In this document: positions 36,015-38,039 of the stretch, one piece after another
How the letters are laid out: each line of letters begins with the position of its first letter
Numbering within the stretch: position 1 is the stretch's first letter
From: Trichinella spiralis
Lineage: Eukaryota
Direction: 5' to 3'
Length of the DNA: 64,000 bases
Assembly: GCF_000181795.1 (NCBI RefSeq)
Contig: NW_003526948.1
Coordinates: forward strand, 2,654,562 to 2,718,561
The notes under the pieces: generated by a model
What the model was told of the DNA's origin: nothing
What the model saw: only the letters and a program-made list of their open reading frames with translations
Database searches by the model: none
Program-made: the position numbers and the translations under genes

Positions 36015-36544
36015 TTAAATTGGATAAGCCGTAACAAGGCCTTGATATCGGTTAACGATGACCATAACAAACGAGGAGACGCACAGAGCGTTCATCGTTC
36101 TGCTTATGTTCACCACAGAGCAACCGATGGGTTCTTCTAAGGATGCAAATGCATACATTTGATTTGGAAATTGTTCAATCCATCTTTGACTTAAGCTGAA
36201 AAAGAGAAAAAAAACAGTAAAGCGTTTGTTTTCAAACAGATCAATCAACAAATAAACAAACAAATAAATATTTACGGCGCTGTGGCTTTGGTGATCGCTT
36301 TGACCAAATGATACTCGCTGAAGAAGTAAGATGGGATCCGTTTGTCGAACCTTCCGAACCATTTATGAGCATTCTTGCGACATCCGTGCTTGCTCCAAAT
36401 GTGGGCCACAACCTCACGACGAACCCGGATGTTCAATTTTGCGTTCAACTTCTTGTAGATCCTGTCGATAATTCTGTTCTGTTTGATCTCGTGCTGAACA
36501 GATGACGTTCGATTCTCATCGCGGAAATGTCTCATTTTTCCCAT
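36015..36544 (-). CDS. Uncharacterised ~150-aa protein, two coding exons; putative His-His ribonuclease-toxin-like domain; 5' end uncertain
   Basis: Exon 36544-36276 joins exon 36195-36015 across an 80-nt GTAAAT..TTTTTCAG intron in matching phase 2, merging ORF-track entries 36272..36568 and 36015..36362. The exons are richer in GC than the flanks. The frame stays open upstream to an AG at 36659. Confidence 0.75.
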
Positions 36545-38039
36545 ACGAAAATTGTCGAAGTTTTTCACAGCAGCGAAAAACAGCGTAGCAGACTGTACGA
36601 CGAGCTGAGCAAAAATGACTTTGTATCCCGGTTGTTCGTCCCTCCAGTGTGTGTGTGCCTTTTAATGCGTTTTACTTTAAAGTGGAAAAAAGTGAAAATT
36701 CAAAAAGTTTAAAGTTTGAAATTTACAATCTTCCACGGGTAATTGTTTAAAGTTTCTTTTCTTTTTGGAAACTGAAAATTGTATTTTCGAGAATTTCAAA
36801 ATCAAAATAATCCACAAAAGATAGAAGAAAAGAAAAGAAAAAAATATGTGTGATGGATGCTTGCCAATGTACAAATCTTTACCTCTTTTAGTTCGTTCGT
36901 TTGTTCATTCGTTGCGCATTGAATTGAACCGATAATTTAGTATAAATTTCCATAAATAAACAGTATCCTCCTTGCTTTTTTTTGGTGTTTTGTTTGAATG
37001 AACTGCAACAGTGGGAATCGATGAACAACATACATAGATACAGAAGAGAAATATTTATTCGAAATACAACTTTTTTTCAACTTGTGAGAAAAGTTTTGTA
37101 CATATTTTCATCGCAACGGTATCAACCGAAGCTTCTAAAAAATTGACTATATTAAAAGAAAAAAATAATAATAAATTGATACGGATCAACGCGCACTGTT
37201 CACACGCAGTACACAGTTCAAGGCAGTCAGAAACAAAAAAAAGGTCTGATAAAATTTGAGGTGCGCAACTAAATTTTCTTTTTGTTTGACGGGAAGGGGA
37301 GCTCGTGGAAGAGTGGGGACAGGGGCCGGGAGGCAGGATATAAAGGGAAGGAGAGCAGGGAGGGGGGGAAAGATGGAAGAGGAAGACGAGCAGCGTCCAA
37401 GTTCACGCATCGGTTGAGCTAGTTATAGTTTCAAGAACAACAACAGTAGAAATCATTTATAGGGGAACGGGGCTGAAGGGAGGCAATTCGAAATATAATA
37501 TGAAATTAATAACTAATAATAATGATAAACTGATCGCATGGGTTGTGGAATTGTTTGAGAAAAATGCGTCGAAAAGAAAAACTCCAACTCATCTTCTTTC
37601 TGCACATCCTGGCATTGCACGAACGGACATGAACTTGGATATGGACGCATGCCTTGTAGGGAAAATATGAGAAAGTGTAGTATTTTTGTTGTGTTGCTCT
37701 ATTTGAATAATTTCTTCTCTCTTTTCAATTCTTTGGTTCAATTTCAAGCCCAACATTGGCCTAGGCTTATTTATTGTACCGTCGTAATTTGAAAAGTTGG
37801 TCTAATTTGACAAAGACAACGGTGTGTGTGTGTATGTGTGCACACAGCACAACACAACACAACAAGTTTCAGAGAAAAAATCGAGCAGCTATCATGTTGA
37901 TGATGATGATGGTGGTTCAAAGTTAACCCCCTCCGTTCTCTTCTCTTCCCTTCCCTGCCCCACCCCGCCCCACCCATCTGCTCCCCTCTTCCCACCAAAA
38001 AGAAGAAAAAAGTCTACGCATCCATCGCAACAAGAAACA

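Follow-up and report, generated by a model that had tools for sequence, protein, structure and literature searches.

Could a nuclear gene of a parasitic worm encode an RNase that resembles the toxin tips of bacteria? The question is raised by a short gene on the minus strand of a 64,000-nucleotide (nt) stretch of Trichinella spiralis DNA (NCBI RefSeq assembly GCF_000181795.1, contig NW_003526948.1, positions 2,654,562 to 2,718,561; hereafter, the window). The initial annotation, made from the letters alone, had read it as a two-exon orphan gene resembling bacterial EndoU-like or contact-dependent inhibition (CDI) RNase A-like toxins, possibly of horizontal origin. We lean, if only slightly, towards a combined answer: a spliced and expressed Trichinella/Trichuris gene with the predicted fold of CdiA-CT(Ykris) (PDB 5e3e, Pfam PF18431), which is likely a stand-alone metal-independent endoribonuclease and was probably acquired from a prokaryote.

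The proposed two-exon structure is confirmed. Once 36544-36276 and 36195-36015 (minus strand) are joined, the resulting 450 nt encode precisely the predicted product of 149 amino acids (aa). The 80-nt intron (36275-36196; GTAAAT...TTTTTCAG) is in phase 2, follows the GT-AG rule, and has a GC content of 0.25, compared with 0.47 and 0.41 in the exons; a single GT-AG pair was found among the ranges tried near the junction. The form started at the second Met (36535) has the same sequence as the T. spiralis protein Tsp_05313 (XP_003371645.1; 146 aa, "hypothetical"), on which residues are numbered here. The product is basic, as had been noted (isoelectric point (pI) 10.3; 25 Lys and Arg vs. 10 Asp and Glu in the 149-aa form), and carries the motifs H-I-W-S-K-H, P-S-Y-F-F with a following helix, P-I-G, a hydrophobic strand, and G-L-V-T-A-Y-P in the order first described. 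The parts of the gene are as follows.

36276..36544, minus strand: exon 1, with the first ATG at 36544 (second ATG, 36535, in the Tsp_05313 model); predicted to contain the helix of the His pair, a long helix N-terminal to it, and the P-S-x-F motif leading into the following helix.
36196..36275, minus strand: intron, 80 nt, phase 2, GT-AG; the published coverage in adults (0.84) and muscle larvae (0.86) matches the exon share.
36015..36195, minus strand: exon 2, the predicted beta-sheet half of the domain, ending G-L-V-T-A-Y-P-I before TAA.
36386..36403, minus strand: H45-I-W-S-K-H50, counterparts of CdiA-CT(Ykris) His170 and His175 at equal spacing; both His are present in 6/6 representatives.
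36323..36334, minus strand: P68-S69-Y70-F71, aligned to the bacterial A-S-[TS]-[FY]; the Ser is found in 6/6 family representatives and 40/41 bacterial rows.
36021..36032, minus strand: T142-A-Y144-P145, counterparts of Ykris Thr276, Tyr278, and the next Pro by both alignment and structural alignment.

Is the gene expressed? Published poly(A) RNA sequencing covers it in all three stages, which bears out the expectation of a transcribed gene. In Table S5 of PMC4053732, from libraries of RNA selected by oligo(dT), the gene has a length of 521 and values of 9.3, 12.3, and 55.7 reads per kilobase per million (RPKM) in the newborn larva, muscle larva, and adult, respectively, the adult level being about 5–6 times higher. 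The 521 nt match the genomic span between the second ATG and the stop, of which the exons make up 0.846. The published coverage of this span in the same source is 0.84 in the adult and 0.86 in the muscle larva, close to the exon fraction, as expected if the intron is removed; these values give indirect support to the 36276->36195 splice. In the newborn larva, on the other hand, the coverage (0.98) exceeds the exon share, and intron retention may occur at that stage; retention would stop the frame at 36274-36272, with loss of the catalytic strand. A supplement of PMC7846577 gives 63.0 (adult), 18.0 (muscle larva), and 9.1 (newborn larva), with units not stated and possibly from the same underlying data.

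The gene is not the orphan it was first taken for, as its family spans Trichinella and Trichuris. Annotated orthologues in T. nativa, T6, T. britovi, T. murrelli, and T8 are 79–81% identical, and a phmmer search of 1.84 billion representatives returned five matches at E<=1e-3: T. pseudospiralis (50% identity), two Trichuris suis paralogues, the full-domain record P0012, and the partial record P0009. The last was dropped as a chance, repeat-driven match, since its four tandem repeats match residues 37-68 only. Species-named matches were confined to the two genera in this exhaustive, single-sequence search, with P0012 as a further member, and a word-indexed profile search (index of proteins up to 378 aa) added none. 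Another T. spiralis record of the same protein, P0004 (KAL1246194.1), bears the label "DNA replication and repair protein RecF", which no scan backs. Among six divergent representatives (26–79% pairwise identity), H45, H50, G51, N55, A56, P68, S69, G111, G139, T142, Y144, and P145 are invariant, so that conservation of the two His is borne out. Members are only 26–50% identical across genera and clades, yet the active-site-type residues persist; between T. spiralis and T. pseudospiralis, the domain is ~50% identical, while a block downstream keeps 62/68 residues. Such rapid change around an apparently fixed active site would fit a role in conflict. P0012, the deepest member, has an N-terminal membrane segment (Kyte-Doolittle 2.83) and reaches 30% identity to a bacterial PF18431-type domain; it may come from a further worm or form a bridge.

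What does the family resemble? A motif scan for bacterial PF18431-type domains found at least 120 loci, and those listed gave 76 complete distinct domains, 74 after a C-terminal filter, and 36 non-redundant ones. Aligned with hhalign to these 36, the family profile reached 91% probability (P 1e-6) over 106 columns, compared with 0.5% for the reversed profile, 6% for the best of 150 column shuffles, and 17% for the best of 150 block shuffles. The exon-2 half alone reached 89%. When single members were scored against the bacterial hidden Markov model (HMM), none of 200 shuffles reached the score for three of the seven members. The features of the ESM Atlas likewise gave their top rank to RNAse_A_bac clusters (0.92, with 168 shared features against the usual 170), followed by EndoU_bacteria (0.89). 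The EndoU family PF14436, in contrast, gave 27% in hhalign over the last 14 columns alone, from a small, heterogeneous set (17 of 18 collected domains, one partial domain dropped).

The predicted fold points in the same direction. A worm-only model, built from nine family sequences (predicted local distance difference test (pLDDT) score 72), was compared by Foldseek with 350,542 chains, and the top two matches were both chains of 5e3e (E 0.22, prob 0.80, template-modelling (TM) scores 0.32/0.40). VIA-align placed residues 40-146 onto 168-280 of 5e3e with Z 6.1 and a root-mean-square deviation (rmsd) of 5.0 over 95 residues. In a second, aided model (pLDDT 87), to which 41 bacterial rows had been added (picked from 58 against near-duplicates), the match rose to Foldseek E 1.7e-4, TM 0.53/0.66, and VIA-align Z 9.5, with rmsd 3.0 over 101 residues. 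Thus, 5e3e was the top Foldseek match for both models, and the structural comparison proposed at the outset comes out in favor of the CDI-type toxin, as far as predicted models go. The other Z values for the aided model were 6.9 for the Bacillus subtilis YxiD toxin (9v8i), 4.4 for Neisseria MafB2-CT (8hhj), 3.1–4.0 for vertebrate RNases, and 3.5 for EndoU-type chains (5hkq 3.5), and angiogenin ranked third in Foldseek. The aided model also predicts an extra N-terminal helix (residues 4-33). A viral fold search was blank or sub-threshold. From sequence and models together, the protein is very probably homologous to the CdiA(Ykris)-like fold. Of the two toxin types first named, the CDI RNase A-like tip is favored by fold and motif order, and EndoU falls well behind (27% over 14 columns; Z 3.5 vs. 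9.5).

Mutagenesis of CdiA-CT(Ykris) implicated His175, Arg186, Thr276, and Tyr278 in metal-independent RNase activity and in the hydrolysis of cyclic cytidine monophosphate (cCMP), with Arg186 required for full activity (PMC5435912). His170 has been added to the active-site set, and the His spacing is 5–6 in the CdiA(Ykris) family compared with 12–18 in EndoU (PMC7297114). In the worm family, the counterparts of His170, His175, Thr276, and Tyr/Phe278 are H45, H50, T142, and Y144, all present in 6/6 representatives; the spacing of H45 and H50 is 5, as in Ykris and outside the EndoU range, and T142/Y144/P145 fall on Ykris 276/278/279 (the structural alignment ends with model residue 146 on chain residue 280). 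In a joint alignment of 50 rows, H45, H50, and T142 are invariant, and S69, W92, G111, and P145 are conserved in at least 90%. S69, W92, and G111 lay outside the search pattern and are conserved in at least 39/41 bacterial rows. The worm protein thus has in common with CdiA-CT(Ykris) the order and spacing of H-x4-H, S-x-[FY] with a helix, W, G, and a terminal T-x-Y-P, and in Trichinella, too, the domain sits at the C-terminus.

Several observations weigh against this reading. Scans against Pfam, NCBIfam, and PHROGs found no family above its cut-off, and eight family proteins gave no match to PF18431 (curated cut-off 27 bits), a family to which 8/8 bacterial domains tested as a control scored 87–119 bits. 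The best Pfam match was a weak one to Tox-HNH-HHH (E 0.0095), rejected for want of a match in the T. nativa orthologue and of fold support. PF18431 was selected as a target after leads had been seen, and both His in the bacterial rows were fixed by the search pattern. The exon-1 half alone gave no hhalign signal (0.4%), and all single-sequence tests were sub-threshold: the score against the bacterial HMM was reached by 5/200 shuffles for Tsp_05313, 2/200 for T. pseudospiralis, and 47–48/200 for the Trichuris pair. The matches of the worm-only model are individually weak (TM 0.32/0.40), its Z of 6.1 being tied with a helix-only match (Z 6.2), and the strong Z of 9.5 comes from a model containing bacterial sequences and is partly circular. 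There is no conserved Arg at the position of Arg186 (His175 + 11), and the worm loop there has gaps and fewer residues. Pattern scans of sampled genome, viral, and metagenome contigs gave 11, 6, and 64 candidates, none of them confirmed, and no near relative from prokaryotes or viruses emerged. Finally, the very long branch of the family in a tree without an outgroup means that neither a donor nor nesting within bacteria can be claimed.

That tree (43 rows) places the seven family rows on one side of the long branch (support 100/100, ~5.6 changes/site), with P0012 deepest and the branching of the named worms following taxonomy. Searches for nearer relatives by tblastn in plasmids and phages, and in PDB sequences, were blank or sub-threshold; the family profile matched 0/5 and 0/401 sampled genomes, and a joint profile matched 1/301, a typical PF18431 gene in a seed genome. 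Transfer is nevertheless favored because the active-site pattern is prokaryotic and the named members are limited to two related parasite genera. A prokaryotic origin therefore seems quite likely to us, and the best reading of the family's distribution is an acquisition before Trichinella and Trichuris split. The lineage has a published precedent, the horizontally acquired cyanase of Trichinella/Trichuris (PMC9079694), likewise an old acquired gene kept in the worms, although cyanase is a plant/algal-type metabolic enzyme with a resolvable tree. That the gene is genuinely nuclear, as first proposed, is shown by its spliceosomal intron, worm neighbors, synteny in T. pseudospiralis, and poly(A) expression.

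How might such a protein work? On the evidence of sequence and models, RNase activity has probably been retained. His50 (the counterpart of His175) would act as a general base on the 2'-OH, yielding a 2',3'-cyclic phosphate, while Tyr144/Thr142 (Tyr278/Thr276), or His45 (His170), would provide the acid and the stacking against the base, and RNA would be bound by the basic surface (net +14). Lys or Arg is found at positions 49 (6/6) and 66 (5/6), and one of these residues may stand in for Arg186. As had been observed, no signal peptide is visible: in the five proteins scanned from named worms, no N-terminus is hydrophobic (Kyte-Doolittle <=0.78 for the best 19-mer). Nor is an immunity partner visible, since the adjoining genes encode a G-alpha and a MORN-repeat protein (the block at 33361-33586 also lies nearby). 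In a representative search without length limit, the family proteins stood alone at 130–216 aa with no N-terminal delivery or secretion region, and the gene is not part of a polymorphic toxin system. Because the annotated forms have no signal peptide and no immunity gene adjoins, an intracellular location and role are most likely. It would then be a tamed enzyme of narrowed specificity, at work within the cells of the worm itself and chiefly in the adult, and the extra 30-residue N-terminal helix would be a candidate restraint or partner-binding element. A more specific history, in which a bacterial toxin tip was captured by an ancestor of Trichinella and whipworms, gained an intron, and became an active RNase against gut bacteria, viruses, or host cells, is put forward only tentatively.

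Could the protein be exported instead? Here, the 5' end matters, and it is as ambiguous as was first stated: the end originally given (36658) falls in a stretch upstream of the ATG that is in frame and free of both stops and Met.

36545..36661, minus strand: upstream stretch of 39 in-frame codons, stop-free and Met-free, GC 0.47, with a moderately hydrophobic 19-mer (Kyte-Doolittle 1.69).

The stretch may be either a 5' untranslated region or an unannotated N-terminal extension. With fold and origin unchanged, an exported or membrane-anchored enzyme could serve the gut-dwelling adult against bacteria or host-cell RNA, or in nucleotide scavenging, as Batot et al. suggested for lipoprotein-anchored Bacillus members (PMC5435912). 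Adult-enriched expression, the N-terminal membrane segment of the homologue P0012, and the exon-like, in-frame stretch with its hydrophobic 19-mer before the ATG are all consistent with export, which would also account for the lack of an immunity gene. Yet 0/5 of the scanned named-worm proteins have a hydrophobic N-terminus, and the upstream stretch lacks a Met, is closed by an in-frame stop (36664-36662), and offers only a weak acceptor. We consider export unlikely, although it is the leading alternative.

The fold could also be homologous but catalytically weak or dead, leaving a protein that binds RNA and retains its pocket for holding the substrate. The missing clear counterpart of Arg186, the absence of an inhibitor gene nearby, and alternative gene models in two species that drop the T-A-Y-P strand would suit this explanation. 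It is made improbable by the retention of both His, the Thr, and the Tyr in 6/6 representatives at 26–79% identity, and nearby lysines are dispensable in the related MafB2 toxin (PMC9970974).

A vertical or host origin, as a highly diverged eukaryotic EndoU or a vertebrate RNase A taken from the host, is more doubtful still. EndoU and the RNase A-like families are distantly related (PMC7297114), angiogenin and amphibian RNases are among the fold matches, vertebrates are the worms' habitat, and the tree leaves the family unplaced. EndoU, including toxins (PF14436; 5hkq) and eukaryotic and viral forms, has in common with the superfamily an N-proximal His pair and a C-terminal aromatic-Pro strand (PMC7297114), but differs from the worm protein in His spacing (12–18 vs. 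5, the latter as in CdiA(Ykris)), in its low Z (3.5), and in an hhalign match confined to the last 14 columns. Vertebrate RNase A (angiogenin, amphinase, onconase) is alike in overall fold and is also a stand-alone animal gene, with Z of 3.1–4.0 vs. 9.5 for 5e3e. The worm protein, however, has one near-invariant Cys and no C-terminal catalytic His, compared with a His-Lys-His triad and 2–4 disulfides; it also lacks the signal peptide and has a coding intron, and the Pfam scans of the family gave no match to PF00074. Least credible of all is that the resemblance arose by chance or from an artefact (contamination, faulty annotation, or a similar C-terminal strand in an unrelated protein), for, although each single-sequence test is sub-threshold, contamination is ruled out by the spliceosomal intron, the location between the G-alpha and MORN genes, T. 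pseudospiralis synteny, poly(A) expression, and homologues in two genera, and the whole-domain collinearity beats all 300 shuffles.

The preferred reading, a prokaryote-derived endoribonuclease of CdiA-CT(Ykris)-like fold, still leaves the worm gene well apart from PF18431. Identity is 10–30%, the Pfam score stays below the cut-off, and where the worm proteins have H-G-C-x-x-N-A, the bacterial ones have H-V-G-K. Furthermore, the worm gene lacks a clear Arg186, carries the 30-residue N-terminal helix and an intron, and stands alone without a delivery domain or an adjacent immunity gene. The next-best structural matches, YxiD and MafB2-CT, are 11–12% identical and, unlike the worm gene, belong to toxin-immunity pairs; MafB2-CT is an RNase A-like RNase that uses His335/His402/His409 (PMC9970974). 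The protein would work like a PF18431 RNase, but because it falls short of the Pfam cut-off and the gene is not part of a polymorphic toxin system, we file the family as a putative, much diverged animal offshoot of the prokaryotic RNase A-like superfamily rather than as a member of PF18431.

Our literature searches (most subscription journals outside coverage) found no report on Tsp_05313 or the worm family among the papers listed. Term searches of PMC13334664, PMC3482391, and PMC3417536 returned no passage on such a worm gene, and the gene ids are absent from the supplements of PMC3429391 and from 12/16 supplement files of PMC4105696. Mushegian et al. listed two animal-assembly matches as suspected contaminants and proposed that a CdiA(Ykris)-like domain, horizontally transferred, gave rise to vertebrate RNase A (PMC7297114). 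Under the tentative history of a captured toxin tip given above, the worm family would be the first true representative among animals of the prokaryotic RNase A-like family, and a present-day parallel to that proposed origin. If our reading is true, a spliced, expressed, and syntenic gene with this fold and active-site pattern would indicate that the germ line of an animal can receive such a domain and keep it. The tolerance of an animal cell for a toxin RNase without an immunity protein would become testable, and a parasite-restricted "hypothetical" family, with no host counterpart detected, would gain a predicted function.

The neighbors named at the outset, gsa-1 and jph-1, are confirmed as a G-alpha C-terminus with its stop at 38726 and MORN repeats starting from an ATG at 32484, fitting gsa-1 and junctophilin by sequence. 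Two further features lie downstream of the RNase-like gene.

35853..35858, minus strand: first AATAAA past the stop, a candidate poly(A) signal by consensus match alone.
33361..33586, minus strand: conserved GC-rich block, joined to exon 2 via a donor at 36072 in alternative models (T01_16050; T. pseudospiralis T4B/T4E).

Use of the 36072 donor would remove the T-A-Y-P strand. Since models of both T. pseudospiralis and T. spiralis join the gene to this same block, the locus is syntenic across both Trichinella clades. The block (33586-33361; GC 0.55) lies between the RNase-like gene and junctophilin and is open on both strands; models from T. spiralis and T. pseudospiralis agree there at 62/68 residues and differ by the in-frame deletion of a single codon, and a Pfam scan gave no match. 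The block may represent an unannotated exon, whether of junctophilin, of the RNase-like gene, or of a gene on the plus strand.

The G-alpha-s gene has two C-terminus pieces (40186-40001 and 38872-38726, minus strand), both covering PF00503 positions ~300–333 and both following an exon that ends at 40726. One piece ends in the canonical ...IHLRQYELL and the other ends differently, and they are possibly alternative last exons that would alter the tail involved in receptor coupling; for the piece at 40186-40001, the search gave no clean acceptor in frame. Elsewhere in the window, the long GC-rich frames include what we take to be a paramyosin-like coiled-coil gene (57800-63050, minus strand) and, presumably, a thioredoxin-type WCGHC exon (54541-54780, plus strand).

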